DNA of 45,809 bases, counting the filler, from Streblomastix strix (Eukaryota): NCBI GenBank assembly GCA_008636045.1. It is 2 parts of 2 records of this genome, joined end to end, with 100 filler letters (N's around TTAATTAATTAA, not from the genome) between each part and the next. Parts side by side here need not be neighbours in the genome. Positions count along the whole stretch, not along the records: positions 1 to 22,888 come from SNRW01000305.1; 1 more part is not named here. One strand, written 5' to 3'. Each line of letters begins with the position of its first letter. Within the stretch, counting starts at the first letter, position 1. Positions 1 through 40,948 of this stretch are shown piece after piece. The notes under the pieces were generated by a model. It worked only from the letters and a program-made list of their open reading frames with translations. It had not been told where the DNA came from and searched no databases. Position numbers and translations under genes: made by a program.

Positions 1-284
1 GCAATGAATGACTTATGACTGTTCCGAATGTTCCGAGTCGTAAAACATTGATGAAATTTATGAAATTTGCACGCATAAATGGAATAGATAGTGAATGACT
101 TTTGATTGATCCGAGTGTTCCGAGTGTTACGAGTCAAAAACTTTCATCAAAAACTGCTGCCAGCCTGCCATTCTGCCAGAAGTGAGAAAAATAAATAAAA
201 ATAAATAGGGTTTTCCTCCGCCTGCGGCTGTTCAAACGTTAATTTGTTCGTTATTGTCTTCATTAACATCTTTATTGATGTCTT
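1..284 (+). repeat. Left TIR (truncated by window start); contains internal-repeat copy 1 (92-190, forward)
   Basis: Reverse complement of 22329-22612 with 6 mismatches in 284 nt by manual alignment. Confidence 0.95.
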
Positions 285-2713
285 GATCTTCTTCTCTTAG
301 TCTGTCGTATAATTTTATTAAATCTTCAAACAATTTATATATCCATGTTCGTTTTCCTAATATTGTTTTATATATTCTTTGAGATTTATTTTTTTATTTA
401 TAATTTGAATGATTTTTCTTTAACATCATATGGTTTGAATTATAATGCAATAGTGCAAGGCACACCTTCTTTAAACACTTGATAATTTTATAAGATTACA
501 TCATCAAGCTATGAACGTGATGCTCTAATTATGTCCTTTTTCGCCTCTGTGAATGGAATGATTCTTTGATTCCAATTGCTTATATTTTTGGTCATAAAAT
601 AAGTAAATAAATTATTGTAAAATTCATTAGTGAAACCGTTAGATAAAGAAGTGAAATATTCAACGTCGTCTCTATGAACTGCCTTACATCTGCATGCAAC
701 ATAACGCCTATCATTAGTTTCAATATTTACAGGGAAATCGTTATTGGTTACCATTATCAAATTCATTACATTTTCCGCTGTTCTGTGAGGCTGATTTTTT
801 TCATTTATTCTTATTTGATTATCGGTTATTATTGACTTCAACGCATCCATGTTCGAATATCTTGCTTCTCCAAAATTTTTAAGTTCATTAGCTATTCCAA
901 GGATTATATTTTCAACGACAAAATTAAACTTGCCTGTAAATTCATCAATATCTGTAATATTTTTAATTGAATAACCAGCCAATAATTCACATAAAACATC
1001 TGTAAATCTATTCTTGCCTCTAACTTGACTGCCTTACAATATCAATGCCACCTCTGATTTAGTACCTTAATTTTTTATATCAAATGCAATCCAATTAAAG
1101 ATATAATTATATAAATTTTCATCACCTGCTGCTATCGTATCATATATTAAATTTAAATAATTGTTAATTAGGTCTTCATCAACAGTAGGCACTTATTTGT
1201 ATTTACAACCTTAAAATATACTGAATATTTCAGTGTCTTAACTAACAAATCCAATTCCTTTCAACATATATAAAGAACTAAATTATTCGCAAACTTATTT
1301 TAATGATATTTTTTTTTAATTTTCTTTCCATTGAATAATTATCTATAATTGTTCATATATTGCTGTTTTATTCATGCATTAAATTTTATATTTTTCATTG
1401 ATTGCATCGTATTGTTTCACTATAAATACTAAGCTACCATCACATGGAGCACAACGTAATATTCTTGTTAAATCTTAAGCTACTTATTCAATCTTTTTAT
1501 ACACTTTATTTGTAATATTTTTCTATATATCTAATAATGAAAAATTATCTTTTAAATCAATTGATTACTAATTTATTTTTATTTATTCGCCTTATAATTA
1601 TTATGCAAGATAAGGCTTTATAATATCGATGTAATACTATGGATTGTGATATTTAACAATCTTTTATAGAACCCATGGATTAGCTTTCGAATAGAATCTT
1701 GACCTTTTGAGCTCCCAATTTTGAATCGCATTTTCGGGTAAATTATTTTATGCCTAAACTTTGTTATAAGCATCATCAACATATTATTTAATTTCATCTT
1801 CACGTAATCCATCAACAAATGCAAGACCATTTAGTCCTGTAAATAAGCATAATAACGTTATTTTTCGTTCGACTTTCTAAGCATCGTAACGTATCTATAA
1901 ATGTTAGAGTCAATCAACTAATAAATCAGCAAATTCTTTATTCATTTTTCGTAATTTTCCATCATTATTTATAATCGGTTTCTCCTCTTCAAATTATGCT
2001 CTTAAATCTATACTATAAATATCTAAGACATCATTTAATGTCGCTAGGTTCTTTTTTTCAAACATATTATTTAAGTCTTCATATTTTAAAGTTTTTCTTT
2101 AATTATTTTCTTAAGGCCTATATGTTGATTTCGGAAGAACGACAAGTCTTTATTTTTCATCGATATGAGCAAATATATCAACATCAAAATTGTCAGTTTT
2201 AATGATTTGGATTTATGAATTATTTTTTAACGGGTATCCATCTCTATCCAAATATACATGTAATCCTCCATGTGCTGTCTTAACGAGTCCAACATTTGAA
2301 GGTAAATTTTCAATAATTTAATTTCTTATTTCTGTTATTTTTTCAACAGATAAATCCTTTTTGATATCAAAATCCATTACGCATAATTATTCATCACATT
2401 TGCCTAAATCAACTGCTGAACCTGTTTTTGTTACTTTTTTTTCATCAGTATGTTTTTTATAATTATATAATGGAGTGATTGCATCTTTGATACGTTCGCC
2501 AATAGTTAAGTTATTATTTTTCGAATTATTTTCTGACATATTTGTTTAAAGAACTAATAAAATTTTGTTAATTTATCTCTTTTTCTTTTGTTCATCGGTC
2601 ATATTATCTGTTATTTCAGTTGGATATAACATATTAATTATTTGGCTGGATTGGCTGACTGATGGATTCTAATTGCCGTTACATTTGACAGATTCAAATT
2701 CTTTTGTTGCCAT
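232..2713 (-). CDS. Prim-Pol (AEP) primase fused to D5-like SF3 helicase; frameshift in an A-run near 390
   Basis: Table-6 translation: CVMDFDIK and VKTAHGGLHVY (Prim-Pol motifs), ILQGSQVRGKNRF (Walker A-like), ANELK, LKSIITD, MVTNN, DRRY. Confidence 0.85.
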
Positions 2714-2720
2714 TTCTTAC

Positions 2721-2742
2721 CTGTTAAAAAGTTGAATTTATA
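2721..2742 (-). promoter_or_regulatory. Putative promoter/5' motif TATAAATTCAACTTTTTAWCAG upstream of the primase-helicase
   Basis: Same 22-mer with 1 mismatch at 11839-11860; both lie 7-8 nt before an ATG. Confidence 0.45.
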
Positions 2743-2830
2743 AAAAACAAACTCGTTTATTTTTAAAATAAGTTTAATTATTTATTTATTGAACTTTTTA
2801 TTCAACATAATTTTACTTTTATTATTGATT

Positions 2831-2955
2831 TTCACTTCTAGCAGAATGGCAGGCTGGCAGCAGTTTTTGATGAAAGTTTTTGACTCGGAACACTCGGAAC
2901 ACTCGGAACAGTCAAAAGTCATTCATTAACTATTCCAATTATCCGCGCAAAAATT
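2831..2955 (-). repeat. Internal TIR-derived repeat copy 2 (reverse)
   Basis: gcagaatggcaggctggcagcagtttttgatgaaagtttttg-(actcggaac)x3-agtcaaaagtcattca. Confidence 0.93.
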
Positions 2956-3327
2956 ATACACTTTTACATTGCAAAATTCGGATTAATCAACCGTTCGAGA
3001 TTTCGATTTAAACGTCATTTTTGGATTCTACGTATCAACGTTGTATATAAACATCATTCTCAAGGCAATATGGGAACATTAATTTTTTGCCTTATTTTTT
3101 AGCTTAAAATTTTTACAGTCATTATATATAGAAATTAAAAAAAATAAAAAATAAAAAAATAACTTTATTTTCATGAAATTTTAAAATCATTTGATAATCA
3201 ACTACATACACAATTCATATGCACTGATTCCGAATATGACCTTTTTAGCTCAATCTGAAACTGTTGATGAGCATGAATTATCGGCTTTATTTTATGCAAA
3301 TAATTAATTATTTTTAACATGATTAAA

Positions 3328-3891
3328 ATGAAGAGTCCAACTATTCCAGAAGTGGAACCATAATTTGAAAAAGAAATTGATCCATTTTAACAACCCAGTT
3401 TCTGCAACCCATTTCAGGCGTAGGTTATTAAATGTGAAACGCCAACGTTGTCGGCTAGGTGCAGAAGTTCAATATTTGAAGAAACTTTAACTCCAGACCC
3501 TTCAGTGTGTCGTTGGCTGTTGGATATCATTAGTGAAGACGAGCATATAACTAAAGAATCAGTGCATTTCGTATTATCAGAAAATTAATTGATTTGAGTT
3601 GTTGCTTACACTTTTGACGTCCCAGAAAGTTAAATTTAATTGAGTATAGAGGACGAAGGATGTTGTGGTAGGTTTTGCAGCGATTCGACTTAAGCATTAA
3701 ATGAGATATTAATTGGGAACGTAAATATATTAAAGCTAAACGTCGAAAAAGTAAATTTAATTAGGGATAGCTATAAAATATGTTTATAAAAAATAAGAAA
3801 AATTACAAGTATTTTAGATTTGGGAGAAATCACAAGTAAAATTATTAGTGCAGTATCAAAAGGATTAATGACTGTGTTAAATAAAATTTGA
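3328..3891 (+). CDS. Hypothetical viral protein (~187 aa, one internal TGA near 3595)
   Basis: ATG-to-TGA frame under table 6; weakly similar frame before the fibre gene of element 2. Confidence 0.55.
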
Positions 3892-3923
3892 AACCGTTAA
3901 TTAATTATTTTTATTTTTATAAA

Positions 3924-6716
3924 ATGGACGGAGATTTACATATGCTTTATGTTGTTTTAAATCATGATTAGACACTGTACGGTTCAAGTAAGTTTAACAC
4001 CATTGGCTTAATTAACGAAGTAAAAAATATTGAAAATTTAAAAAGTACAATTAATGAAGCACCAGAACCTTATAATCGTGATGAAATTGATGAAATGTTA
4101 GATATAAAATTAAATATTTCTGATTAAATCAATGCTTACACCAAGACAGAAGATGATGCTCTGCTGTTGTTGAAAGCTGATAAATCAGAACTCATTGATA
4201 CATATTCAAAGACAAAAGATGATGAATTGTTAGGATTAAAATTAAATATTTCTGATCAAATCGATGCACACAATAAAATTAAAGTCGATGCCCTACTCGA
4301 TAACAAATTAGATGTAAGCGATTAAATCGATGCATACATTAAATAAGAAGATGATGCATTGATGTTATTGAAGGTTGATAAATCAGAACTCATTGATGCA
4401 TATTCGAAGACTGAAGCCGATGCTCCACTCGATGAAAAATTAAATATTTCTGACTAAATCGATGCATACACTCAATAAGAAGATGATGCGTTGCTGATAT
4501 TTAAGGCTGATAAATCAGAGCTTGCGGATTACGTTAATTTAGGCACTAATCAAACAATAACAGGTCAAAAATAGTTCAATATTATTACAGTTGCAAGTGT
4601 TTCAAAATAGGGTAAAAATGATGCTTCTATCTTTCTAGCAGGTGGTGGTGATATGCTTGTGAGTTCATTAGTGAATTAAACTGAATTATAAGAGGTTCGA
4701 GGTATTGCTTCTGGAAAGTCAAAAGCATATGTATTCGATACATAGTCAGATTTGAATGATTGGATGGCAATTCAGGACAATGTCGCGAAACTTGTGATAG
4801 GTGATAATTTATATATAATTGATAAATAAGTAGTGGATTATTGGTGGGATGGCACTGATTTAAAAGTATTAGAAACTGAATAACCTGATATGGCCAATGT
4901 CATTACAACTCTTATAACAGCTACAGGTGGAGGTAATGCAATAGGTGATTTATTATTTAGTGGAAATACATTAATACCTGCGAAAAATATAAATTTTGTT
5001 ACCGCAGACTACGATTAAAATATTAGTGGTTCAAAAACATTTACCAGAACTATTCATTTTATTGGCATTTAAGTTCAAAATTATGACAATTTAAGCGTCG
5101 TACTAGCAGGTGGCGGTGTAAAGGCAATACAGGACATAAATGCAAGCGTCGATTTATCAAATTATTACAACAAATCATAAACATATTCATAAACTGAAAC
5201 AGATTAAAAGTTAAATCTAAAATTGAACATTTCCGATTAAATTGATGCTTACTCTAAGACATAAGATGATGCGTTGCTGCTATTGAAAGCTGATAATACA
5301 GAGCTAATCGATGCTTACAATAAAACCGAAATCGATGTCCTACTCGACAACAAATTAAATATATCTGATTAAATCGATGCAAACACTAAGATGTAAGATG
5401 ATGCGTTGCTGCTATTGAAGGCTGATAGAACATAGCTGATTGATGCCTATACAAAAGGCGAAACCAATAATCTTTTAAATAATAAAGCTGATTCAGGAGT
5501 TTTATACACTAAAGGAGAAGATGATGCATTGCTGTTGTTGAAGGCTGATAAAACATAATTGATTGATTGATTCACTAAATAGGAAGATGATGCGTTGCTG
5601 TTGTTGAAGGCTTATAAAACATAACTAATCGATGCATACACAAAAGGAGAAACTAATAATCTGCTCAGTATTAATGCAGATTCAGGAGTATCATACACAA
5701 AAGGAGAAGATGATGCGTTGCTGTTGCTGAAAGCAAATCAATCATAAACTTATATCAAAACAGAAACTGATTAATTAATATCATAAATTGAAGTTGGTAA
5801 TGTTGATTTAAGTGGTTATATGGCCTTAGGCACTTCATAGACAATAACAGCAAATAAGACTTTCAATAATGCTTGTAGATTCGTAAGTTCTATCGATGGA
5901 ATGGCAACAATTACAGGCACATAGTTTGTTAAATCTGGCGCTGACGATACTGTTGTATTACTTGGAGCTGGTGGCACTAAGCCAATTTCTGAATTTGCGG
6001 GAACTCCAACTGATTTATCGGACTATTACATAAAAATATAAACATATTTGAAAACAGAAACGGATAATAAATTCGAAAGATTGGAAGGCTCAATTTAATA
6101 AATAATAATTGGAAGATTAAAATATGTTGGTCCATTTGGTTAGACATACGATGAAACATAGGACCCAGTTGCTAATACATATTTGACTATGTCAGAAGTA
6201 GATTCAAAACTAACGAATTACGTAAATACGGCAAATAATTAAGAAATTAATGGCACAAAAACATTCAATGCTAATGTTAATGCTACTGGATTTGTGAAAA
6301 CAGGCAAGGATTATACATCGGTTTTATTGGCTGGTGGTGACGACCAATTATTATCATCATTTGGAGGAGTGCATGCGGAGGACATAACAAATTTAGTTGT
6401 AAATTTATATTCAAATATTATATTCAATTATTTAAAACTTACTCGAATAAGCACTTTTTATACTTTAATGATGGAAATTTAACCAAAAACTTAAATCAAT
6501 ACCTCAACATAAACTATAATTTGCACTGTTGGAAATTCTAGTACTGGCATATCTCCTCCAACACCTCCAAGCACTACATATCCTATTTCATTGGCAACGA
6601 AGCGAAAAACATTAACATGTATTTATTCATATAGAGATTTCCGAATAACTACCGACTCAACAGAAGCATGGGGTATTAATGATGATGTAGGCTTATAACT
6701 TAGTTGAATGCTTTGA
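3924..6716 (+). CDS. Long repetitive fibre/spike-like protein (~930 aa; internal TGA at 5568 and 6705)
   Basis: Single frame with many ~22-aa DAYTKxEDDALLLLKADKxxLI repeats and four QxIxxxKxF...LxGGG-type modules, resembling phage fibre shafts. Confidence 0.65.
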
Positions 6717-6777
6717 TGCCTCTGCTTATTATTGCTTGAAATTGTTTGGATTAATTAATTATTTTTATTGGATATAA

Positions 6778-8429
6778 ATGTCGAACGTATATATTGATGA
6801 AAGATTGTTAGACGCTGCTGGTTTATCTGAATTCCCAGAATTATACGCATATATCAAAGAACGGTATCCTAAACCGATTGGTGAGCTATCGCAACCTGTT
6901 CCAATTGGAGAACAAACATTGCAATAGTAAGTGAAAAATAATGATGATGTTATCCACACATCAAATGAAGCGTTCGCGCCACCAGTGCCGAATGCTATAA
7001 TGAAATTGGATTTAAATTCATAATTAGAACAATAAAGTTTTTTAGCATCTAGTGGTTCAGACCCATAGTTAATCGTTTATGGTGATAGAATCACACTAAC
7101 CACATCATATGCGACAATAGGTCTATTTTCTAGTGGTGTTTAGTTGGGAGGTTAGTTGAGCGGTTATTTATTCAAAAGTTATCCCCCTGAAACAAGACCA
7201 AAAGCAGGTGATTAAGTGATTGCATTAGTAGGAACTGATGCCCCTAATACGTATAATATATTTTGCTATATCGATTAAAACGGGCCATATATTATATGTA
7301 ATAGATAAATATCTTCAAATACTGCTCTAGTGCTTAATATTAGATATTATAAATCGTAAGAATCGTCAAAGAAAATAAATTATGATGCAAATAATGACGG
7401 AAAAATAGACATTATGGACACGTGTAATTAAAATGAAAAAGGTTAATTTGAAGCATAATCGTATGTTTATGAAACAGTTAAAAAATAAACAGATTTAATC
7501 GAGGCGGGAGTGTAAGGATTAAATAGATCTAATTATTTGAACAGTGAAATAAAACTAATGGATGAATTAGCGTTATATAAGGCAAATAGAGCCGCATATT
7601 TTATTAAAGATCGTCCATTTATCATATATAGCCTTGGGGTAAAATTGGCACAATTAGGCACCAATTCTGATGCATAATAAACTGTATATAAATTATTATC
7701 GACAATCAGTAAAAAAAAGTTCTACCACGTAATATTAAATATATGCCTATTCATGTAGAATAATAAGAATTTTCCGCTATTTGTTTGTTCAAGGATATGT
7801 ATGACAAGTCGTCAGCTGTATAGGTAGCCCTTAGTGGAAAATTAAGTATGTTTGATTGTGAATTTCAAGGAACATATATCATTGATAACTATGCGAACGC
7901 ATCAGCATCTAATGAAGTCGCATCTGAAGAACCCGAATCTCACATCGACGAAGTAATAATAAAACATGAATAAAAAATTGGTTCATCACCACAACCACAA
8001 TATACGATAACAAATATCTATAATCAATTTATGATAAATGATTTTTTACCCTCATCAGCATATAATACGTTCTATATCGTTGATGATGGCACTTGCAGAG
8101 TATGCGTATTCAATCTATATTTCGAATCAAAAGGATTGCAAGGGAGGACATAAGAAGTTGGTCGTATTCCTGATTCTGTATTACCTGCAGATGGTAAAAG
8201 TTTGGGCTTCCCTGCAGCTGTATATAGCACATAAGGCGGAAGATAGAATAAATTTTCAGTGAATTATTTTATTGTAAATTCATAACTTAAAATGCTATAC
8301 TTTTAATTATCAGAACCATAAGAGTCAATACCAACGGATTCCGATGATGTTTATAAATATTGTGCTAGTGGGATGTATTACTTGCGAAAAAAATCAACAA
8401 AAAGCATTATTTTGACACGAGAAATATGA
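6778..8429 (+). CDS. Second fibre/receptor-binding-like protein (~550 aa; frameshift in the A-run near 7715)
   Basis: Table-6 frame; beta-rich segments such as YPPETRPKAG and VGRIPDSVLPADG; DANNDGKIDIMD loop. Confidence 0.5.
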
Positions 8430-8432
8430 ACA

Positions 8433-8545
8433 GTTAATGAATGACTTTTGACTGTTCCGAGTGTTCCGAGTGTTCCGAGTGTTCCAAGTCAAAAACTTTC
8501 ATCAAAAACTGCTGCCAGCCTGTCATTCTGCCAGAAGTAAGAAAA
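8433..8545 (+). repeat. Internal repeat copy 3 (forward, four 9-bp units)
   Basis: tgaatgacttttgact-(gttccgagt)x3-gttccaagt-caaaaactttcatcaaaaactgctgccagcc. Confidence 0.93.
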
Positions 8546-8617
8546 CATTAATAAAAAAATCATTTATTCAAATCCAAAATAATACATATAATATTTTATT
8601 TTTATTATAAATAAACG

Positions 8618-8908
8618 ATGGCCGTCGTGATATTCTCTAAAATAAAGCAATTAGTTTAAAAGGTACGGAAGGGTCTTTAATGGGCTAATGATAACGTTTA
8701 TAAACCGTTTATAAAACCATTTGCTAAACCGATACTTGGAGCACTCGGTCCTGTTGGCTAATCAATATGTAAAGGTTTAGATGTTGCTAGTTCATTTCTT
8801 GATTATAGTTATGGTGCAGATAAAAATGGTTAATTTAGATAAGATTTTGAAACGTTGAGAAATGATGAGTATTTAAGATAAAAATTACCAATTGATATTC
8901 AGAGTTGA
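8618..8908 (+). CDS. Small 96-aa protein with basic amphipathic N-terminus (candidate membrane-lytic virion protein)
   Basis: Intact table-6 ORF MAVVIFSKIKQLVQKVRKGLQWANDNVYKPFIKPFAKPILGALGPVGQ... Confidence 0.65.
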
Positions 8909-8967
8909 AGAATATAATTATAAAACCAATGAAAAATAATAAAATTAATGTTTGAAACGTTTGAACA

Positions 8968-9118
8968 CTATTTATTTTTATTTATTTTTCTCTCATCTGG
9001 CAGAATGGCAGGCTGGCAACAGTTTTTGATGAAAGTTTTTGACTCGAAACACTCGGAACACTCGGAACACTCAAAAGTCATTCATAAACCACACCATTTA
9101 TGCGAGCCAAAATCATGA
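8968..9118 (-). repeat. Internal repeat copy 4 (reverse)
   Basis: Same core as copy 2 plus TIR-like ctatttatttttatttatttttctc flank and ccatttatgcg extension. Confidence 0.93.
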
Positions 9119-9209
9119 ACTTTTAAGTTGTAAAATTGATGTTCATCAAAAGTTTATTATTTCATTCAGTATTTATTTAACTATTTCATTATTTTATTGA
9201 ATGTAAAAG

Positions 9210-10923
9210 ATGAATAGATTCTTAATGAAAATCACACATTTACCACAAGCAGGGACCATTGAAGAAACATTATTAGGCAATGCCGTTGTTCCATTCACTA
9301 ATGACGGAGAACATCACTATTCAATCAAGGAAATCAAACCAGAATCATAAATGCCAGCATTATTTAACAAGGGGATAATCATTAGTTTATTAGACACAGA
9401 CCACGACATCACATAGATATAAAATTCGTTCTTGTCGATAGTGTTAACTGCCAATATCTAACTTGATGATAAATTTGATAAAATTGACGAATTGTATAAG
9501 GACGGATAGGTTTTATTTGTAGGTCTCAAATCAGGTTCTAATCTTATTCGCGAATATACCATATATCATAGAGGTAAAAACATTGATGGAAGCCTATAGA
9601 ATGACGCAACAACTGAATCATTTATTTATAACGTAATCAAGCCAAAAAGTGAGAAACATAATAGAAACATATTTATTCCCTTTATGAGAATATTCATAAT
9701 TTTGATACATCAGCGTGTGGAACATATATAAGTAAGCGAGAGATTGAAGAGCTAATAGGAAATCAAACAGCCATTCCATATACAATTCCAATACGCTTCA
9801 GAGTCAGCATTCCACTTGATGATCTCTTGATATTCTCTGCCTTCACTGACTATCCTAATGGCCTATTTGGTGATTTAAAAATAAAATTCTAAATAAATCC
9901 TCATGCATTCGTTTTCTGTCAAGTGAATCCAATTATTTCAATGGCTAAATATTATACAACGAATAAAGATGAATTATTTGGTAGTAGTCAGTAGAAGTTA
10001 ATGGATATCGATTTGATGTTCAGAAATTGGAGTTTGACGTTCTAATATACCAAATAATTTACATAATTAGGATGCACTGCTGACTTGATTACAGGACTAC
10101 ATGCGGAGCCATTAACTGAGACAGGACTGAAAAATTTAGTATGCGACATCAAACCCGTTACCATAAGCATAAAAAATTAACTTACAACAGAGGTGACCGC
10201 TAACATGGCAGGTTATAAAGCTACTGATGCATGCCTTAATCGAGTCCGATAATTCTACAGCTAACGTCCATTTGTGGTTCCTGCTCAACGTGTGGAAGTA
10301 TGGCCATTTCCAACGTCTGCTACATTAACGGGAATATGAATATCTTAAAATATTCCTTTGTCTCACGTAACCGACTTCTGTCTGCTATTCCCTAAAGATG
10401 CAAGAGCTACGACTTGTTTTGAAAATCCGTGCTATCAGAACATGCAAATAACCACCTGCGGACGTAATTTCCCAGAAATGCCTATGAATATGCTTGACCA
10501 ATAATTCTTCCAATTATAACTCAATGCGTCAAATCTTGCCCTTTTATTCGAAGCCACTGATGAGTATGAAGATGCTTTAACAACCCCAAGAAATACAGCG
10601 ACTCGAAGACTGAAACCTCACACAGATTTATCAAGCTATTTGATAACTCTTTAATATGAAAGGAACAGCAACGGAGCACTAATTTTTGACGGATTAGACA
10701 CTCAGAACTAAAACACTTCTGTCGAACTTAGAGGAGCACCAATATATCAAGGAACAACAGATTCATATTATAATATAGATACCAGCGGAAAGAGACCACT
10801 ACCTCCTATTTTATGCACAGTTCATGATACATTTTGGTTATTCTCTCTCTAGCGGCAGGTGGTAGCTGCATATACGATACAAACCACTCATTTGATGAAG
10901 TTATTCGACCACTGACAGGATGA
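9210..10923 (+). CDS. Probable major capsid protein (double jelly-roll), ~570 aa; frameshifts near 9670 and 10845, TGA near 10337
   Basis: Size, beta-strand-like segments (LFVGLKSGSNLIREYTIYHRGKNID) and position in a Polinton-like genome; fold is inferred, not shown. Confidence 0.62.
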
Positions 10924-11072
10924 ACGAACTAACCCGTTAATTGAGAACATTTTTTATTTTTTTTATTTATATATATAACTAATACCTAAACATTAATATA
11001 GTTAATTAAATAGGTCCTTAGTTATATTTTCATTAATTATTTTTATTTATTTTATAATAAACGGCTTCAAAT

Positions 11073-11456
11073 ATGACTTCAGCATAAAACTTAAAATATT
11101 ACACTTTGACATAAAATGACGGAATTGTAATGGGAGAAAACGGTTAGAATGGAGTTGGTTTTGCATTATTATACGCGTTTGTAAATTCAGATAATTAAAG
11201 AAAAATAATATTCTGCTAATGTCCTTGTTCAAATTAAGGCGCTAACGAGGACATTTCTGTTCATAGTTCAATGGTTCAAGAGGAATAATATTTCGATTAA
11301 TTTGTTGGCTATTGTAATGAATAACGTGTTTATAAGCCCTTCATACAATACAACCACAACAGATATTTATATGTTTGGTTCCGTTAAAATTAAGAATTAT
11401 TGGATATAAATTAAAATTAATTAAAATTTGTTCTTGAGTTGATGCTGGAATATTGA
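11073..11456 (+). CDS. Possible minor capsid (penton-like) protein, 127 aa
   Basis: Intact table-6 ORF just after the MCP candidate; C-terminus YLYVWFRQNQELLDINQNQLKFVLELMLEY resembles single jelly-roll penton ends. Confidence 0.4.
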
Positions 11457-11503
11457 AATAACTAATTTATTTTTATTTAATTTTATTTTTTTATCACTAT
11501 AAA

Positions 11504-11719
11504 ATGGCAAATAATGAGAAATAAAATTTACGTTTTGAAAAATATGCACGAATATTTATGGTAGATACTATGAAATTTTTATTAATGCAAGCCGAAAGAG
11601 ATGGAGAAGATTTAGAGTTTAAAATTATTGATTATGAATACGAATAAGAAAGAATAATTTATGCAAAATAAAAAATAATTGAAATGATGAAATTAATTTA
11701 AACAGAGGCCAATTTATGA
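11504..11719 (+). CDS. Small hypothetical protein (frame may originally have continued to ~11820)
   Basis: ATG after T-rich tract and aaaATG context; charged helical sequence. Confidence 0.35.
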
Positions 11720-11838
11720 AATATTAAATCTGAAATAGTTTATAAAGAAAATATAAAGAAATTAGAATAAAAAATTTAAGAAACAGAAGAAAAAATAAAA
11801 TAAATTAAATAATTTTAAATTAAATCGTTTTATTTATA

Positions 11839-11860
11839 TATAAATTCAACTTTTTATCAG
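11839..11860 (+). promoter_or_regulatory. Second copy of the 22-nt putative promoter motif, upstream of the KilA-N gene
   Basis: tataaattcaactttttatcag versus the reverse complement of 2721-2742. Confidence 0.45.
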
Positions 11861-11868
11861 TATATAAA

Positions 11869-12709
11869 ATGGATTCTTCTGTAAGCATAGACGGCAAAGA
11901 AGAATTTATCAAAACATCATATAATGGAATTGAAATTATTGCTAGGAAATCAGATGGATACATTAATGCTTCTAAAATGGTTGTTTCATTAACACGCTAC
12001 GAAAAAATGCAGACTGGAAAATCTTTTCAAAACAAAGAATTGGAGTAAATACTATCAATTTTTTATTTAAATGTAGTAATAAAAGGCTATCGCCCAAATT
12101 TAGTCGGTACAGTATTTAGATAAAAAGAGCATATATTCAGTTGAATTTAGAGGATGGTATGTTCATCCAAAATTAATAAATTATAATGTAATATGGGCAT
12201 CTCCAAAATATGCTTCAATTGTTGGTGAAATAATGCATGTAATCAATGAACATATATAAGTCGAATTCTAAGCTCAAGATGATTAAAGGTCCATGGCTGA
12301 TTTTGCAAACGAATAAATTTAAATAATAATTGAAGAATAAAAAATAATAATAAATTAAAAAAGATGATGAAATAAATCAACTGAAACCAAGAGCAGTTCC
12401 AGATGGTTATTAAACAGATTATATATTCGCTGTTCAAGTAGAAGATGATGATGAGAACGATAACACTGTACTTAATATCAGACAGAGAAACAAATATTGT
12501 ACGAGTAAAAAGCTAATGAGAAAGTTAAAGGGTAGTTTATTATTCTATGAAAAACTACCTATAAGTATGTCGAAAAATTATGAAATAAAAGATTAATTAT
12601 ATAAATGTTTGGAGATTAACTATAATTTCATAAGTGCAGATACATTTTTAAACCTGAACTAATGGATGATGTCATTGATTTTATAAAGCACAAGATTGAA
12701 TACAAATGA
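11869..12709 (+). CDS. KilA-N (APSES-like) DNA-binding domain protein with coiled coil; frameshifted
   Basis: YNGIEIIARKSDGYINASKM and FRGWYVHPKLINYNVIWASPKYA, hallmark KilA-N motifs. Confidence 0.85.
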
Positions 12710-13099
12710 ACGACATTATTTATTTTATTTTTGCAGAAATATAATGGTAATAATCTTGTTCGACAATAGAAAAAACAATTAATTTACTTCAAAATTATAA
12801 GTAGAATAAGATGAATAGGAAGAAATACTATTCGAGGAGGGGGTCGAAGGATAGACCAATGGATATAAATATTTTGAGATCTTAAATGATTTCAAATAAT
12901 TTATTTCCCAAAATTAATAATAATTATCTAAACTAACAACGTAAAAACTAAATAAATTATATAAATTGGACGGCTATAAGTTATCAAAAATAGAAGGTCA
13001 AGTATGTATAAGAACTTGTGCCAAAGACTAATTGAATAGGATTGAGTATAAATTAGACTAGTTTTTGGATTTTCTGAACCATTTAGTTTAAGCGCTGAA

Positions 13100-13205
13100 A
13101 TGAATGATTTTTGACTGTTCCGAGTGTTCCGAGTGTTCCGAGTCAAAAACTTTCATCAAAAACTGCTGCAAGCCTGCCATTCTGCCAAATGTTGATGAAA
13201 AGCGT
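13100..13205 (+). repeat. Internal repeat copy 5 (forward)
   Basis: tgaatgatttttgact-(gttccgagt)x3-caaaaactttcatcaaaaactgctgcaagcctgccattctgcca. Confidence 0.93.
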
Positions 13206-13212
13206 TAATGTC

Positions 13213-14000
13213 TCAGATTATTTTGATAACCGTTCCACTCATTTCATATTATACCACTAATGCTTATTATTTAATTAATCGCACGTACTCATACCATATT
13301 GATTCTTTATCTGATGGTATTGAAGATTAATAGAAAAATTAGTTAAATTTTAATCTTTTAAATGAACCGAAGAACCATAATGAATCAAGATTTGATTTAT
13401 TAGCAGCATCTAAACCAATAATGTCCTATAAACAAAGAAAGTATGTTATTCTGGGCTACCTGTTCTTAAATAACTTTTTAAACGGTGGATTATTTTTATT
13501 TTTAAATATACTCATTGCATTGTCAAATAAAACAATTGTTTGAGGAAAATTGACGTCAAAATTTCCTTCTCCACTAGCTCCAAATACATTGATTAATGTG
13601 TCATCTTTTGACTCTTCAGTTAGCTCTTTTTATAATTATTTTTCTTAAATTTCATCATACGCTTATTTGCATTCTATCAAATCATTCAACACTTAATCCG
13701 CTTCGGCATATGGAATAATTTTAGTCGGTATTTTAATTAAATCCTTCATCTTTTTATAAGTGGTGTCATTATTTGAATCACTGACGTATATGAACAATAT
13801 ATAACAATGTTTTTTAATTAGCTTAATTTTATTAACTCTTTGAAGACATTATACGTCTTGCCACTGCCACGCTAACCTATCAATAAATTTACAGAGTTAT
13901 ATGTAAAATTTAATTCTTTATGAATAATTGTTTAAATTTCGTGCTTATTCACTTTTATTTCTTTTAACATGCTATCAACTTTTTATGTTAAACTCGCCAT
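13213..14000 (-). CDS. A32/FtsK-HerA-like genome packaging ATPase; one frameshift near 13810
   Basis: Walker A LLIGQRGSGKT, Walker B IVLFDN, NRQPRITYFLCLQ (Arg finger/Q motif). Confidence 0.85.
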
Positions 14001-14040
14001 TTTTATTATATAAAACTTTTTTTTATCGATTATAAATAGA

Positions 14041-15146
14041 ATGGCGACATCATCATTATCAGAATAAGAGATACAATAAATACTCGATTTAAAAGCACTT
14101 GAAAACGAAGCAAGATAAGAATTTGAGGCAGAAAAAGGCGCAGGTGGTGCAGGTGGTTAAGGTTTGGTGGAAGTTGATGGAATGGAGGATGATTATGATT
14201 ATTACGAATCACAACCAGCGAGATAGGACAGAATGAAATCACGAACAAAACCGTTTGGTAGGCTGCCGCTCCATCCCAGTATGATTCAAAGAACAAGAAA
14301 GCATGCAGGCCCATAATTTAAAGAATAGGCGGGAGATGTCCTTGCTACACTCGTTGGTTATTTGAACCGAGATATAAAGAAAATTAATAGGTTATCGTCC
14401 GCCTTCAGTGCCCAAAAATATATATAAGATATACATTTAGACAAACGATTCAGTGTATTGGAATAGGATTTAGATGATAATGTAGCCACTCCTGATAATG
14501 TGGTTGTTTTTGAAAAGAAAAAGAACGCAATTTATTCAATCGATGGTTCTACAACAGCTTTAGGATTTGGCGACCCAGAGCATTAACATAAAAAAAATTG
14601 GAAGAAAAATATTATTCAGATGTTAATGATTTAGAACGAGCTGCATTGGCTGCCAAATTAAAAGCATTTGGAATAAAAGGCGGCCCTTACATTAAATAGC
14701 TATCAATGACTAAGCGGCATAAAGTAAGAGAAATAAAGAATTATAGTTTCAGAACATTTATTACCTATGCTAAAAAAATAATGGACAAAAATGGAGGCGC
14801 AAAATTGCCAATGGCAACCAAACAACAAATAATGGCATCTTCTTGGAATTCAGTTCTTATTATTCCTGCTGTAGAAATATTAGAAAGGTAAGACGTAAAA
14901 ATAGACATATGTAACAGAAGCAATAAAACAAAAATATAGTAACGATAATACGAATTTTTGCCACTTGCTAAAAGATTGTATAAGAAAGAATTGCCTACCA
15001 TTATTATTCAACTATATCAAGCCGAAGATGTCGATGCTAGAATTAAGGAAGCACTTGGATATGCTATTTAATATTATGGTCAAATGCTAGCATAGATACA
15101 AGAATAAATAGATGATATCGATTTAGCTAAATATAAGTTCAAATGA
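14041..15146 (+). CDS. Hypothetical viral protein (~365 aa, frameshifted)
   Basis: Long table-6 frames divergent from the ATPase; acidic/Gly-rich N-terminus. Confidence 0.55.
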
Positions 15147-15160
15147 TTTAGGAGATTTGT

Positions 15161-15300
15161 TTTTTTATTAGTGTTTTCTCACTTCTAACAAAATGGCAGG
15201 CTGGCTGCAGTTTTTGATGAATCTATTTTACTCGAAACACTCGGAACACTCAGAAAAATCAAAAGTCATTCATAAACGATTCTATTTATGCATGCCAAAA
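15161..15300 (-). repeat. Internal repeat copy 6 (reverse, somewhat diverged)
   Basis: aatggcaggctggctgcagtttttgatgaa...actcgaaacactcggaacactcagaaaaatcaaaagtcattca. Confidence 0.9.
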
Positions 15301-15399
15301 TAATACTTTTCTTTGAAGTTGCTGACGTTGTTTTATGACTCAATCCAGCTAACAATCCAATTTATTTATGTAATTATTATTTATTTTTATTTTAATTAA

Positions 15400-18300
15400 A
15401 TGATAGATAAATAGCGGTATGACACGTAAAGACGACGCACGCCTCCGATTGGGCCTCCGATTACGCCATAGATTCAAGCACTACCAGAGCTACAACCGCT
15501 TAATTAATCGGCAAGATAAAAGCAGTCATAAATGACTTAAATGTAGGACTATATTACATAAATGCAAACACGCAACTACCAGCCATCGCCAGAATTATAA
15601 AAAGAACATCAGCAATAGTAATTGATGCAAATGTAGAATTATATTACGTAAATGCAAGCACATAATTACCAGCAATCGCCTGAATTAACGCCTGAACTGC
15701 AATCAAAACAGGGCGAAGCTCACGATGTGGGGGCGGATAATCAACTGAATTTAAGGCACCATAAACTAACACCAGAAATAATAAGAGAATTAATGACTTT
15801 ATATGACGCTGAAATTTAATAGAAAATAAACATTAACGAATTAATGTCATAATTTTCATTAATTTTAGATAAAATTCATTTAGAAAAGGGTAGAAACAAT
15901 AGAGAAATAGTTAGAAATGCAATATTATAATCAAGACCATTTGCATAACGAATAAGATAAGATACTTAAATAGGCCTTCAAAATGAAGAATTAATAGATA
16001 AAGTTTATGCTATATAATTTATGCAAGAAAAAAATAATACATAGAATATGAGCACTTAAGACAAATAGAGCAAACAACGCAATCAATTATGGGAGCAAGT
16101 GATGGAAGATTAGCGAGTCAGACATGCAAATCTATTAAAAGAGATTAAAGAATAAAAAATAAACCTTAAATAAAAATAAAATGCTGATGTGTTCAAAAAT
16201 GATAGAGATGAAATATAAGAGTTTAATGAAGAAAATGAGGGCAAGAATTATAAGCCAAATAACGCCTTGCAGAACACAATTATGTTATGTGAGCCACAAT
16301 TCGAATAAGAATATGAAAGAAGAATTAATTTTGAGCGAAAATATATGAAAAATTAACATGCAAAATATGACTCGTTTTATGTCCATACCATCAGCCCTAC
16401 AAAAGAATATTACAAAAATGATTTGAAAATGATTGAAAATGTCGATGCTTACTTAGATGAAATATATTAGCGTGAATAATAATTTGCGTTCAAAATTGCA
16501 TTTGATTTTGGAGTGATTATTGAACGAGTTGATGGTTAAGAAAACGAATAACAAATAATGTATAAAATTAATTATCCCCTTTAAGCTAGAACAGAAATGG
16601 GAGCACCGACAACCATACGCAACCAAATGGACCTTGCGGATTATAAGAGATTCATTAGAAACCACATAATTTAAATGTAAGAGAAAACCATTATGGACAC
16701 AAAAGAGAAAATAGTTGGTATATTTTCAATAATGATTCAAGTATTCAGACTTCCACATGCAGGCGCTGGTGGGGGCGGTCGAACAATACCATCATTAAAG
16801 AAGCATATTATGAGGCGAGAGATTCGATATATTGACCCTGAAAAAAAATAATTTAAATTTATGTTTCTTTCTAGCATATTCATTTGTTATGATGCCAGAT
16901 ATTAAGGTTGATGTTGCAGCTGACGGTTCCGCTATTGCTGCTAAGCGTTATAAGGAACATTCACGTATTGTAGAAGCAAAGCGATTATTTTAAAGAATAT
17001 ATGGGAAAAAAATTGATGATAATTATTAAGGTTTTAATTTTACAACAGAAGCAGATTAATTTATATAGAATGAAAATTTAAATATTAATGTATTAGCTTA
17101 TGAAGAGACAACGGCAACCTCAACGGTAACCAATTAAGGAAGTTATTATCTATGGAATTAATATAGAAGAAACGAATAGAACGAATAAACAAAAGAATTT
17201 AATATACTTTTTATAACCAACACAATTAACTAACTATAAACTGCTCACGTTTTTTATATCAATGATGTTGAGGCACTAACTGGTTTAAAATATTGTCCTA
17301 TTTGTGAAATGCAGGCTTATAAGACCAGAGATTCAAATTTGTAGTCAAAACTAAAAAGAAACATATAAAAATGTTAACAAAATGGAGGAAAGATAATAAA
17401 AAAAAGTTTATTTAGAAAAATTTCCAAGGTCTTATGATCCTCATATATTGAATAATGTCAGCTATAATTATCTTCTGGCACATGGTCGAGAGGATGAATT
17501 TAAACCTACTAAATATTATATAACATATGATATTGAAACTGTTGAAAGAATCATTAATGAAAAATTTGGGGATAATTAAACATAAATTTCAATACTTGAA
17601 CCTCTTTCGATTGCAAGCACAATAAAAATAAAAAAGAAAGTCATTAATGGTTCAAATAACGGTTCCGTTGATTAAATTTATTCTATTTATTTTGACATAC
17701 GAACCTCAAACTTTATTAATATATGGATTTAATAATTGTTTAAGGAAGCCCGAAAAGTTATTGATTCGAACAAATATGAAGATGAGACGATATCATAGCA
17801 TTATGAGGTACCAGTTATTGGCTTCAATTCTTCAAAATTTGATATTGCATTGATTTTTAAAAATTTATAAAGCGATGAGTGGCAAATCATTAAATATCTT
17901 GGCAGTGGTTCAAACGCTAAATAAATCATTGTTAAGCATAACATATCAGGAATAAAATTGAGATTCATCGATGCGATGATTTATTCTACAAAATTGAAGT
18001 TAAAAAAAATCATAAAAGATTTCACGCCTAAAACGACGCAAACAACGTCAGCCAAATTAAAGTTTCCATATGAATTCATCAATTTCGATAATTAAGTTTA
18101 AGAGTTCGATAAATCAGAACCATTTCCTATTGAAGCGTTTAATAACACTATTAAAAATAAAAATATAAGTCAAGAAAAATATCAAAATTATTTATCTATT
18201 GCTTAATAATTTTTGAACAGGTGGGACTACCTTCGACACTACAACTTTGAAGATACCCGCTTAATGATTGAGCCCCTTGATTACTTAATTGATATGTTCT

Positions 18301-20321
18301 TCAATTATAAAATTGATATGTTGTAGTTTATGTTGATGTCAGCATGCGCTAATGCTATCAAATATGCTCTTGCTTATTGAGACTTCAAACTGGATTAAGA
18401 TTATACGCTAAAAGATGATTATGCCTCATTTATTTTGATATAAAATTTTTGGAATATTAAAGTTTAAAATTATATGAAATAAGATAAAAAAAGAAATAGA
18501 GACACAAGCAACAACATCAAAGAATCAGATTGTACGTTCTACAGAAAATTATTTCTATCGATAGGATGCAACATATGCAAGGCACGATTCACAAGTAAAA
18601 ATCCTCCAACATTAGATAGAATCAACAACGACAGGGGCCATTCTGCTGATAATGTAAAACCTTGCTGCTTATTCAGCAATAACTTTAAGTCAAATAAAGA
18701 TGAAAATTTAACAAGATTAGTAATACAATTAAAGAATTTTTGTCTGTAGAAGTCGCTACCTATGACAATAACAGATGAGGAAATTTATTAAATTTTACGT
18801 TCTGGAATCACTGGCGGATTATCATAAGTCATGCATCGCTATAATGTTGCAGGTGAAACTAAAATAAATTAAATATAATATATTAATTGAAAAGTCATTA
18901 GTTAGGACACAGACCCCATAATGACCCATCTTTTGACTCTAGATTTCAATTGTTAATATCCCACCGTTATGAGCTCAGAGCCGCATAAGTTCATTAAATA
19001 TATAGGTAATAAATTATATATGGCAGGATAAATATTGGATAAAATAACTGATAAATAAACAGCTAGAAATTTAATTTATAATCCAATTCGATTTAATGAT
19101 GTTGAAGGAATGCCGCTATTTATCGCAGTTGTTAAAGGATACATCGACGAATAACATATAAATGATTTTATTAATTTTCTTCCGATATTTAGAAACATAA
19201 ATATTAAGACTGATTAAAAAACATTAGGTTCATATGTGTATAATCTGCTGCTGAAAAATAATATGTAGCATGATAAAATTGAACGAAAATTAACAAATTT
19301 ATCATCAACTCATGGGTAATTCATGCCAATCAGTAATTATTATTTGTGGCTTCTCATTGATGATTTTCATTTCATTATTGACGATATTTAATGTCTTATA
19401 ACGTTCTCGAAGCATGATAGATTCAATCCATTTGTTAAGGAATTTATGAGTCAAAGAATTTGGACAATAAATGAAAAAAATGATGGAAAATAATAGTTCT
19501 ATAAATTAGCTATGAACTCAAGCTATGGAAGTGATGGGATGAATTAAGAAAAATATTCGCAAACGAAATTGTTGAGCTCTGATAGGACATGGTTGTCTCA
19601 TTTCTAAGGTTCATTCGCTAATGATTAACAATTAACAGATGATTTATATGCTGTGTAATTTAATGCTGAAAGTTGCAACTGCAACACCTGCCTCCATTCT
19701 GCTTATTTCGTGTTAGATAATAGCAAATACTGGTATAAAAATTTTATCTATAATTTTATGGCCAAAGCTTTCGATTTGAACAGGATGCATTATATTTGTG
19801 GTGATACTGATTCGATGACATGGGCCATCAGCGGCAATCCTGATGCAGAAGAAGAATACAGGCAGAAATTTAAATATGTCATAAAAGATCAGAAATTTTT
19901 CGATGAAAATTACCCATTATTCTTCGGATAATATAAACAATTATTGGGAGTCAGTTATGAGGCAGAAGGAACGGCTTGCATCGCCTTAGCTCCAAAAATT
20001 CATTACATTTATAATCTTCTGCCTAATGAGAATGAAAAGGATTACAATTATTGTTTGAAAGGAATAACATAAAAATAAAATGTTCAGTTGAACGATGAAG
20101 CATTTAAATAATCATTAAATGATGAATAAATTTATGCTTAAAATATTATACTTGGTTAAATAAATAAATAAATGTCAAAAATATAAATTAATAAAGTTGG
20201 TTTATCATCAATCCATAATAAAATGGTTGTGCTTGAAAATCAATGTTGTGCGCCATTCTTATATATTAACGGGTAGCAATTGAGTTCAGAAAATTATATA
20301 ATTATTAATGATGAGCACTGA
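15400..20321 (+). CDS. polB: Protein-primed family B DNA polymerase (~1640 aa) with N-terminal extension, OTU-like, Zn-finger and EndoVII/HNH-like segments; several frameshifts
   Basis: ITYDIET, IGFNSSKFD, FPYEF, GITGGLS, LDFNCQYP, KLAMNSSYG, CGDTDSM, LAPKIHY. Confidence 0.93.
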
Positions 20322-20341
20322 TGATAGACTCTAATAATAAC

Positions 20342-20455
20342 CATTGAATAGGAGCGATAAATTGAAGTGGTTAGTGAATGACTTTTGACTGGACTGAGTG
20401 GATTGGGTGGATTGAGTAAAATGGGTTCTATGAAAAATGCCAGTCGATCCGCCAA
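20342..20455 (+). repeat. Internal repeat copy 7 (forward, variant 9-mers; includes a copy of outer TIR sequence)
   Basis: cattgaataggagcgataaattgaagtggttagtgaatgacttttgact-ggactgagt-ggattgggt-ggattgagt; first part matches the reverse complement of 22601-22641. Confidence 0.8.
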
Positions 20456-20528
20456 ATAGTCGAAACGTTATTTGAATCATCAACATCTCCATTAATGCCT
20501 TTAATTGTTTTATTTTTGCAAGAAATAA

Positions 20529-21944
20529 ATGCAAAACGAAAATAAATTGTATGAAGATATCCATAGGACTTTTGCAGGTGAATAATATTAAAGGGAAGAA
20601 TATGAATTTGAAGTATAATAAGATATCGATGATAAAGCATATAAAGTTCATTATAAAATGAGTCTATCAGAGTTCATAAAAAATATCTTTAAAATTGCAA
20701 AGAAAAAATATGTCGATGTTATTGAAGAGAAAGCAGATGAAATAATTATTGGAAAGCGAACAGTAGAAGATTGGTATTATTATTATATTTCAGTTTAATC
20801 GTAATAGGAACCATCAAAGTAAAAAAATAAACAGAAAAATAAACAAATGGAAAAAGAGACATAATAAGCGGTTTAGACTTCCATTCAATCATCCAGCCAG
20901 TAATCCAGCCAATAATCCGCACCCGTTTAAGGTGGTGATAATGAAAATATGCCCTATTTTCCTTTCAAAACAAAATTAAAATTGTTTGAAAAAATAAATA
21001 AAAATAAATATGCTAACAATGAATATTTGCCAGTGACGGATTATAAATTAAAACCATTATAAAGACTACTACAACCTTATTTCTCTCCAAAATTGGGGAG
21101 TTGGGAGATAGATATAGTCTTTTCAGTCGATTAAGACTTGCAGGAAAATAATGATGAATATGATGATGCTATCTTTGAATAAGACGAAATAAGATATGGA
21201 AGAAAAACAAATTTGTATCTATTTTGCATAAACATTAATACGAAATATTTAGTAGTATATCCATTGATTGATAAATCAGCTGCATAAGTAGTTGGATGAT
21301 AGTAAAAAATAATTTAAAACAATTACGTTAATAATGTTCGTGAAGATGGAGAGAAAAGATTTAATGGTTCGTATTTTGCTTTGCTTTGTTCAAAGAATAA
21401 AATTAATGGTTATTTCACTGATTCAAAATTAACTAATCATAATAGAGTAGTCCATTCAGTTATTCGAACAATAAGGAACGCATTTGGTTATAAATTTAAT
21501 TAATTTTCAACAAATCAATAAATGTAAATAGTTGTTGGTATATATAATAATACACCACATCTTGCGTTTCAAAATAAGTATTGCCCATTTTAAGTTCAAT
21601 TATCAAGAGATTTAGAAGGATAATATATATGTTCGTAAATGAAAAAATTAGAGCGACAACTAGCAAGACAACGATAACGGGGTATATTATCATTTAAGGC
21701 AGGAAATATAATTTTAATACATCTTGATTACTAAAAAACATAATAAAAATTTATGAAATAAAGAAAAAATTTTAATTAGTTAGCAGAGTTTATTCGATAC
21801 GTAAATGGTAATGTTTTATGCAGATTATTGAATCATTCTTATAAAGTAAATATAATCAAAATACCTTCATATTATTGTAAGTATGTTAGTGAAAATAAAG
21901 AATCTATTCCAGAATATTATGCTACAGAGTTTTTATTTAGATGA
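20529..21944 (+). CDS. Retroviral-like (RVE) integrase; internal TGA near 21297
   Basis: GSWEIDIV, LFCININTKYLVVYPL, VREDGEKRFN, VIRTIRN, YNNTPH. Confidence 0.87.
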
Positions 21945-21996
21945 AATAAAAATAAAAATTTATTTATATATTTTTTAATTTTTTATCGAATAATCA

Positions 21997-22381
21997 ATGA
22001 CAGCTATTGAGACAATCAACGAGACAAGTCCCAACGGGGCCATCTAAAGACTCAATGAAACAATATAAACTGAGTCATCACAAACAGATCCATTTAGTTC
22101 AGCAAAATTAGGACATCCAAAGAAATATACCGATAAAGAATAGGCAATGATTGCAGCAAGAGAGCAACGCAAAAATGCAAGAATTAGATATAAATAAAAT
22201 TAAACAAATTATGTTTCAAAAGTCAATGAAATGCAATTATTGATAATCAAAAAGCTTAAAAAAAATAATTGTGAATATTAATGATTTGATTACAATAAAT
22301 GAATTGATTAAAAAATATGACAATAAAAAAGACATCATTAAAGATGTTAATGAAGACAACAACGAACAAATTAACGTTTGA
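21997..22381 (+). CDS. Small basic helical protein ending inside the right TIR; frameshift in A-run near 22260
   Basis: KLGHPKKY (AT-hook-like) and AAREQRKNARIRYK; homologous frame after the integrase of element 2. Confidence 0.55.
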
Positions 22382-22670
22382 ATAGCCACAGGCGGAGGAA
22401 AACCCTATTTATTTTTATTTATTTTTCTCACTTCTGGCAGAATGGGAGGCTGGCAGCAGTTTTTGATGAAAGTTTTTGACTCGTAACACTCGGAACACTC
22501 GGAACAATCAAAAGTCATTCACTATCTATTCCATTTATGCGTGCAAATTTCATAAATTTCATCAATGTTTTACGACTCGGAACATTCGGAACAGTCATAA
22601 GTCATTCATTGCCAAACTCAATTTCTCACTCCTATTCAATGCTTTTCATCAATGTTTTCATTAACATACT
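22329..22670 (-). repeat. Right TIR (~342 bp), contains internal-repeat copy 8 (reverse)
   Basis: Inverted match to 1-284; extension to 22670 inferred from the CT terminus and the match to copy 7. Confidence 0.9.
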
Positions 22671-22888: not shown

Positions 22889-22988
22889 NNNNNNNNNNNN
22901 NNNNNNNNNNNNNNNNNNNNNNNNNNNNNNNNTTAATTAATTAANNNNNNNNNNNNNNNNNNNNNNNNNNNNNNNNNNNNNNNNNNNN
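22889..22988. other. Artificial contig-joining linker (44 N + TTAATTAATTAA + 44 N)
   Basis: Symmetric N-run with an all-frame-stop 12-mer; sequences on either side need not be adjacent in the genome. Confidence 0.92.
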
Positions 22989-26354: not shown

Positions 26355-26433
26355 AAACAATCCAGCTATTAATAATGCCTTCATTCTTTTGTTGGAATAC
26401 AACCGACCGGTCAATGGATCAGATCGAAACAAA
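26355..26433 (+). repeat. DIRS right ITR plus right extension
   Basis: 26385-26433 is an inverted copy of 31551-31600; 26355-26387 is complementary to 26684-26715. Confidence 0.82.
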
Positions 26434-26683
26434 CTGACTTGATAAAAAACAGTATAGCAAAATGCTTTTAAAACATTGCAGTGAAATGCGCCAATCGTTT
26501 CATTACTTCGCTTGAAACCTCCTCTCGCGTTTCATTGCTCTTCTTCTTCAGTTTATGAAGTAGTAGTGGTTTGATCTTCAAATGTCAACAGCTCGACTGC
26601 GTCTTTTGTGCACGGACACTGTGATTTTAGTTGTTGAATGCTTTTAAATAAAATATAAATGTTAGAATTATCAAAATTAAGTA

Positions 26684-26790
26684 GAACGAAGGCCTCATTA
26701 ATTGTTAGATTGTTTAAAACACAACCGTTCCTCTGGGTTTCTCATTACCAAGGCCATTATTCGGCCTTCATTCCTTTATTGGAATGCAAA
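26684..26790 (+). repeat. DIRS internal complementary region (ICR)
   Basis: One half pairs with the element 3' end (26355-26387), the other with the 5' end (31581-31658), joined at TTT 26713-26715. Confidence 0.82.
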
Positions 26791-30327: not shown

Positions 30328-30329
30328 AT

Positions 30330-31600: not shown

Positions 31601-31658
31601 ATATGGACGAATAATGGCCTGGGTAATGAGAAACCCAGAAGAACGGTCGGGTTTTGAA
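31551..31658 (-). repeat. DIRS left ITR
   Basis: Complementary to both 26385-26433 and 26713-26790. Confidence 0.82.
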
Positions 31659-36286: not shown

Positions 36287-36428
36287 GTTTGTACATTTGT
36301 CAAATTACTAAAAGTGATAAGACAAAAAATAAAACTTCATGAATTAATAATTAATTAGGACATTAATTAAAAAGTAAAAAATAAAAAAATTTATTAAAAA
36401 ACCATTTTTAAAATTTAAATTATTTTTT

Positions 36429-40890: not shown

Positions 40891-40948
40891 ATGTGCAGCT
40901 TTTAAACCGTTAATTATTAACTTACATTATTTTTGCATAAACTTATAA

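Follow-up and report, generated by a model that had tools for sequence, protein, structure and literature searches.

Copies of a terminal-repeat cassette in alternating orientation within a Polinton-like element of Streblomastix strix

Why should a Polinton-like element carry copies of its terminal inverted repeats (TIRs) between its own genes? The question is raised by a 45,809-nt stretch of Streblomastix strix DNA (hereafter the window), whose left half holds an element of about 22.6 kb, probably an integrated Polinton-like virus with this termite-gut protist as its host. Long open reading frames (ORFs) appear in it only when TAA and TAG are read as glutamine. Its genes run from a primase-helicase (minus strand) through a fibre-like block, a 96-amino-acid (aa) protein, the major capsid protein, a probable penton and a KilA-N gene to an ATPase (minus strand), a hypothetical gene, a family B polymerase with an endonuclease VII insert, a probable integrase and a small ORF. 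The original prediction for this locus, made from the sequence alone, described eight TIR-derived repeats of strictly alternating orientation. We found these eight loci to be copies of one 87-nt cassette of the TIR, which we tentatively read as putative strand-specific protein-binding sites for replication.

Copies of the terminal cassette

The whole window and 100 shuffles of it were searched with a degenerate 26-nt head pattern, allowing up to three mismatches. Ten matches were obtained in the window against none in each shuffle, five on the plus strand (5, 92, 8438, 13101 and 20375) and five on the minus strand (2925, 9084, 15272, 22521 and 22608). Eight of them begin full units, designated F1, R2, F3, R4, F5, R6, F7 and R8, which lie at the predicted places and alternate strictly in orientation. 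The remaining two (5 and 22608) belong to outer half units within the TIRs, F0 (5-38, plus strand; a head and two 9-mers) and R9 (22575-22608, minus strand), which break the pattern, so that alternation is true of the loci and not of each motif copy. The motif forms part of a 284-nt TIR (1-284 on the plus strand and 22329-22612 on the minus strand, with six differences between the arms by self-comparison), in agreement with the proposed TIR origin of the repeats. The outer end of the left arm is cut by the window start, and the true right terminus may be as much as about 50 nt beyond the right arm; an AGTGAG-type 9-mer word at about 22630 was considered as the terminus and dropped, since similarity to the upstream flank of F7 continues beyond it.

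The core of the repeat is directional and spans 87 nt, comprising a 14-nt head, three tandem 9-mers, an A-tract segment and a GC-rich tail that holds three words at 8-nt spacing. Six cores are mutually identical at 82-85 of 87 positions (94-98 %, the extra 9-mer of F3 excluded): F1 in the left TIR (92-178, plus), R2 between the divergent helicase and fibre blocks (2839-2925, minus), F3 with its four 9-mers (8438-8533, plus), R4 upstream of the capsid gene (8998-9084, minus), F5 at the sole convergent junction (13101-13187, plus) and R8 in the right TIR (22435-22521, minus). The two TIR cores agree at 85/87, near the identity found among all six. R6, upstream of the polymerase block (15186-15272, minus), is moderately diverged (73-76/87 versus other copies), and F7 (20375-20461, plus) is a true variant, with 46-51/87 identity to the others, GGATTG-type 9-mers and a tail of its own. 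Nearly all copies are intergenic, as had been claimed of every one; the word "always" fails at F5, the first TGA of which is the stop codon of the preceding ORF.

Similarity falls off abruptly beyond the core. Between non-TIR copies the 45-nt upstream flanks are 58-76 % alike against a background of 51 %, and that of F5 (44-53 % alike to the others) is not shared at all. What likeness there is forms a patchwork: downstream, R4 resembles the TIR (31/40) and F3 resembles R6 (30/40); upstream, R2 resembles R4 (36/50); and F3 and R6 are mutual best matches downstream and joint best upstream. Members of facing pairs are not each other's nearest relatives, and the element is therefore not a set of four recently joined or captured TIR-flanked units. 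Upstream of R4 and R6, similarity to the TIR outer half unit, as relics of it would show, did not reach significance (p 0.15 and 0.16). An 11-nt word found upstream of F7 and R9 recurs within an ORF about 70 nt ahead of F5 (about 13030, 20339 and 22644; shuffle p 0.01, as one of several tests).

Gaps between same-strand neighbours measure 8346, 4663 and 7274 nt for the F copies and 6159, 6188 and 7249 nt for the R copies, an evenness with a post hoc p of 0.011-0.016 under nulls that were either uniform or restricted to 15 junctions placed by eye. The mirror partners R2-F7, F3-R6 and R4-F5 are near-symmetric (offsets 687, 1097 and -428 nt; p 0.015-0.026, again post hoc). Alternation would arise by chance with p 1/64, or 1/20 given three copies of each orientation, and since inversion between opposite copies and deletion between like copies both keep it, alternation persists once present.

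Hairpin stems were among the roles originally suggested; a stem within one repeat finds no backing in folding. The repeat shows only a weak dyad, and ten folds of single repeats gave z values from +0.63 to -1.91 relative to shuffles, nine of them being no better than the shuffles and only F5 (z -1.9) standing apart. Rfam yielded no match in 1-23000, exact repeat patterns no locus in viral contigs, metagenome contigs or prokaryote genomes, and a profile of the F-frame translation of the repeat no match among 1.84 billion representative proteins.

Repeat sites in sibling viruses

The family is large and diverse: 44,303 records of the termite-gut sequencing run X1 match positions 1-14000 at 80 % identity or more. 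Sibling evidence was drawn from gene models that read through intergenic DNA and from short contigs. A profile of the R-frame translation of the repeat matched five proteins, two of them in the query. In P0001 (whose capsid is 91 % identical to that of the window) and P0089 the repeat stands directly before the capsid, i.e. at site R4; in P0102 and P0103 it follows the hypothetical gene, and in P0104 it precedes the polymerase N-terminus, both corresponding to site R6. It has the window's R orientation in 5/5. Among the 15 contig joints covered, of 459 in all, two single-contig joints of run X1 (sides of 34 and 30 nt) have an F copy ahead of the 3' end of the ATPase gene, i.e. at site F5, and one joint, seen in X1 and in X3 from the same sample, sets two cores head to tail. 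Position and orientation are thus kept in siblings at the three internal sites where they are visible.

Four of the five read-through siblings combine F7-type 9-mers with the standard tail, whereas the window has the other 9-mer type at those sites, and one contig of run X2 is hybrid the other way round, joining an R2-like head to the F7 tail. Because siblings often carry another 9-mer type at the same sites, these data point to exchange among repeat copies. In public S. strix gene models (P0001-P0104), several viral genes are often run together through predicted introns, so that database capsid lengths and N-termini are unreliable for this capsid family.

Replication sites and competing explanations

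The explanation we favour, while holding it tentatively, is that a protein-binding cassette of the TIR has been copied inward to give replication sites on each strand, every 4.7-8.3 kb. The tandem 9-mers and 8-mers would bind a replication protein, probably the primase-helicase of the element or one supplied by the host. While the 22.6-kb genome is copied by strand displacement, synthesis would be loaded or re-primed at F copies on one strand and at R copies on the other; alternation would then follow from two interleaved, evenly spaced series. Gene conversion or recombination with siblings would likely homogenise the cores and move 9-mer types among sites, and the cassettes might double as transcription enhancers, as the homologous regions (hrs) of baculoviruses do. 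In favour of such a role stand the closely alike cores in diverged flanks, the even same-strand spacing with its mirror symmetry, and the sites seen in siblings. The element also encodes a family B polymerase and a primase-helicase-type gene; F5 keeps the core at a junction without a gene start and R2 at one without a gene end, and no copy lies at the divergent ATPase/hypothetical junction.

Several observations weigh on the other side. The spacing tests were chosen after inspection of the data and overlap, so they are not independent. The start codons of the capsid and polymerase genes follow R4 and R6 at distances of 126 and 128 nt, as would suit a promoter; F7 has no standard tail; siblings confirm three of the six internal sites (R4, R6 and F5, not R2, F3 and F7), through read-through models and short contigs. 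The N-terminal part of the helicase gene, the putative primase, gave no profile or structure match, and binding, priming and replication by the cassette are all putative roles. Distant relatives show no such repeat around the homologous 96-aa/capsid junction, so that this virus group can do without it.

The strongest competitor is mainly transcriptional: the cassette would be a bidirectional promoter, enhancer or boundary, splitting the genome into seven expression blocks, which seems to us possible but unlikely. Besides the close spacing of R4 and R6 to start codons, a gene start lies beside five of the six internal copies, the three internal R copies all stand ahead of long plus-strand blocks and the three internal F copies all stand behind them, and F5, with no adjacent start, is the copy without shared flanks. 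Only one of about 15 junctions is convergent, however, so 5/6 is no enrichment, and that very junction carries a copy while the divergent one has none. Either side of the core faces gene starts in some places and gene ends in others without fixed rule; lacking a fixed polarity, and present where two genes converge, the repeat fits poorly with the shared transcription-control element first proposed, at least in simple promoter or terminator form. A sigma-70 scan of 8300-9300 stayed at chance level, under a model not apt for a eukaryotic virus. That the repeats are active recombination sites which invert or swap modules to yield genome isomers, in the manner of herpes simplex virus or shufflons, appears improbable. 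The 96-aa gene, which lies between F3 and R4, has its homologue on the strand opposite the capsid gene in three of four distant loci (34-43 % capsid identity; 26 % identity of the 96-aa homologue, E 2e-6, in L004), the fourth having no upstream DNA, and 9-mer types do move among sites. The 96-aa module has thus flipped at some time; ongoing isomers left no sign. Among 101 capsid proteins, 27 are fused to neighbours, and all 27 are collinear and same-strand with the window, 19 having the 96-aa gene directly before the capsid and eight skipping it, which cannot tell its orientation. No ATPase fusion of at least 313 aa occurred among 396 candidates, a weak test, and no recombinase was recognised among the ORFs scanned. 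These models, as indirect evidence, give no support to frequent module inversion at the repeats.

Should the copies instead be functionless relics of TIR capture, through copy-back or template switching in replication, and be kept alike by gene conversion, then the flank patchwork, the hybrid copies of siblings and the preservation of alternation by recombination would be accounted for. We regard this as unlikely, more so than a transcriptional role and less so than active inversion: conservation stops sharply at the core edges, even spacing is unexpected, and same-orientation copies should promote deletions, yet siblings keep the sites. Nested pairing (F1-R8, R2-F7, F3-R6, R4-F5), folding the displaced single strand into a long rod for copying or packaging, would explain the mirror symmetry and the flank kinship of F3 and R6, and is nevertheless very improbable, given that the R2-F7 type of pair is the least similar (48/87), that F5 shares no flank with R4 and that pairing is open to every combination of F and R cores. 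Least credible of all is that a host miniature inverted-repeat transposable element (MITE) entered the element, or that short reads were assembled into a chimera. So large and diverse a family could allow mis-joins at repeats, and F7 may mark a mosaic; but the head-pattern search found no copy in the other 23 kb (22,660-45,809), the motif belongs to the TIR, the gene set is single-copy, and order and sites recur in independent gene models of siblings. The directional core, too, speaks against a genome-wide MITE. Binding sites for replication remain our preferred explanation.

Gene content, surroundings and known systems

Gene content within and between the facing repeat pairs agrees with the original prediction, several labels resting on motifs; profile matches were obtained for helicase, KilA-N, polymerase and endonuclease. 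The majority of the large genes are broken up into more than one ORF, through decay or sequencing error. The primase-helicase gene (232-2713, minus strand, several ORFs) has its helicase part assigned by profile, and its remaining part we take to be a primase from its motifs. The plus strand then carries a repeat-rich fibre-like gene with two further genes (3780-8429; the fibre label comes from the repeat pattern and not from a family match) and the 96-aa basic, probably amphipathic protein (8618-8908), presumably adenovirus pVI-like. The major capsid gene (9210-10933, at least three ORFs) is followed by a probable minor capsid (penton) gene (11073-11456), labelled from its position and with a homologue after the capsid gene in the distant relative L002, and by a broken KilA-N gene with a small ORF (11869-13103), whose stop codon is the start of F5. 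An HNH endonuclease gene (Pfam HNH_3, E 5e-5) lies between a small basic gene and the capsid gene in L001 (901-1482), a distant standard-code relative, and is absent from L003 and L004.

A P-loop ATPase gene in two ORFs (13213-14000, minus), probably the packaging ATPase by weak terminase-type matches (E 8e-4), diverges from the hypothetical gene (14041-15146, plus, two ORFs). The polymerase block with its endonuclease VII insert (15400-20321, plus, several ORFs; E 2.7e-5 and 1.2e-6) combines a PHROG DNA polymerase match (E 2.7e-5) with visible family B motifs, protein priming being putative. The broken region at 20529-21944 (plus) gave no profile or PDB match, and from rve-like motifs we assume it to be the integrase. 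A small ORF closes the element (21997-22412, plus). Both terminal genes have their final codons within the TIR (232-284 and 22329-22412), so that the helicase and the small ORF end in a nearly identical peptide.

Models of two sibling capsids were of low confidence (pLDDT 46.5 and 50.9); their best matches included adenovirus hexon (Z 6.3, root-mean-square deviation 4.6, 151 residues aligned), mavirus (5.3) and Sputnik (5.2), with seipin tied, the models being poor. In Foldseek, most named rows with a probability above 0.8 were major capsid proteins, again for low-confidence models. The models are consistent with a double jelly-roll capsid, without being decisive. The name Streblomastix strix is carried by 99 of the 101 capsid relatives, and protein scans found no relative in viral contigs or prokaryote genomes. 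Size, TIRs and polymerase agree with the assignment to Polinton-like elements.

To the right, a scaffold gap at 22889-22988, 280 nt beyond the TIR, consists of two N runs around a 12-nt palindromic island, and the right flank past it is consequently not securely joined. A retroelement at 26384-31658, with reverse transcriptase on the minus strand (Pfam RVT_1, E 8e-12) and inverted repeats at 26384-26433/31551-31600 and 26713-26796/31575-31658, is presumably DIRS-like by its layout. At 33677-42081 lies a second, decayed Polinton-like remnant (helicase minus; polymerase and integrase plus), about 35-55 % identical to the first element in amino acids and with no capsid block between helicase and polymerase. 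Its gene order is that expected from an R2-R6 deletion, yet it belongs to a different family, and no comparable repeat family was found in it (33.6-42.1 kb). A weak match of the sibling fibre-like protein P0053 occurs at about 44578, outside both elements.

Known systems offer partial parallels. In herpes simplex virus, terminal repeats are copied internally in alternating orientation and divide the genome into blocks, a layout common to both; the herpes repeats run to kilobases and yield isomers in equimolar amounts, whereas our cores measure 87 nt and no isomers were seen in sibling gene models, which is indirect evidence. The adenovirus inverted terminal repeat origin is likewise a short directional factor-binding cassette near the end of a protein-primed genome; the likeness is one of layout, and that cassette is terminal only, in contrast to the internal copies here. 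Strand-specific priming signals exist as the single-strand initiation signals of plasmids and phages. Baculovirus hrs form about seven dispersed intergenic loci of short conserved repeats, seven in SpltNPVII, that serve as origins and enhancers (PMC4535591). The shared trait is the dispersal of intergenic repeat loci: hrs are palindrome-based and sit in circular genomes of 80-188 kb, while the present core is directional, without stable hairpin, TIR-derived and strand-alternating in 22.6 kb. Showing only a weak dyad, it is not an hr, though it may work like one. In the Polinton-like virus PgVV-14T, a giant-virus promoter motif is likewise repeated between genes, as an 8-nt core upstream of start codons (bioRxiv 10.1101/2022.07.28.501842) rather than an 87-nt TIR-derived cassette.

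Metamonada-group Polinton-like endogenous viruses measure 15-30 kb and have TIRs, capsid, pPolB and/or primase-helicase, and integrase; S. strix capsids were placed in this group, and S. strix elements read TAA/TAG as glutamine (Bellas et al. 2023, PMC10120064). The element of the window resembles them in size, TIRs, polymerase and code, and probably in its capsid and integrase genes, and its capsid relatives are presumably the S. strix set of that study, the supplement 1 of which does not name S. strix. The passages of that report on these elements mention only terminal repeats, as against a TIR core at six internal junctions here. In the literature searched, which included PMC10120064 with its supplement 1, no description of internal TIR copies in a Polinton was found. 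The virus group is known; for the layout, that search brought up no published account.

In many Polinton-like viruses a primase-helicase is encoded alongside the protein-primed polymerase or in its place, and we know of no genomic start site established for this enzyme. Being conserved, directional and present in several copies and two natural sequence types, the cassette offers a concrete substrate for binding and priming assays, and its direct and inverted copies would make it easy to exchange or delete modules within a very large endogenous family. It is conceivable, if rather doubtful, that this lineage exchanged purely terminal origins for an array of internal priming sites on both strands, with four TIR-derived cassettes per strand at about 0.1, 8, 13 and 20 kb from their own end, read by the viral primase-helicase, whole sets switching 9-mer type together between sibling lineages. 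If true, such an array would stand midway between Polintons, whose replication is protein-primed, and large DNA viruses, which prime theirs internally; were the role only transcriptional, the cassette would still be a defined cis-element for viruses of an unculturable oxymonad.

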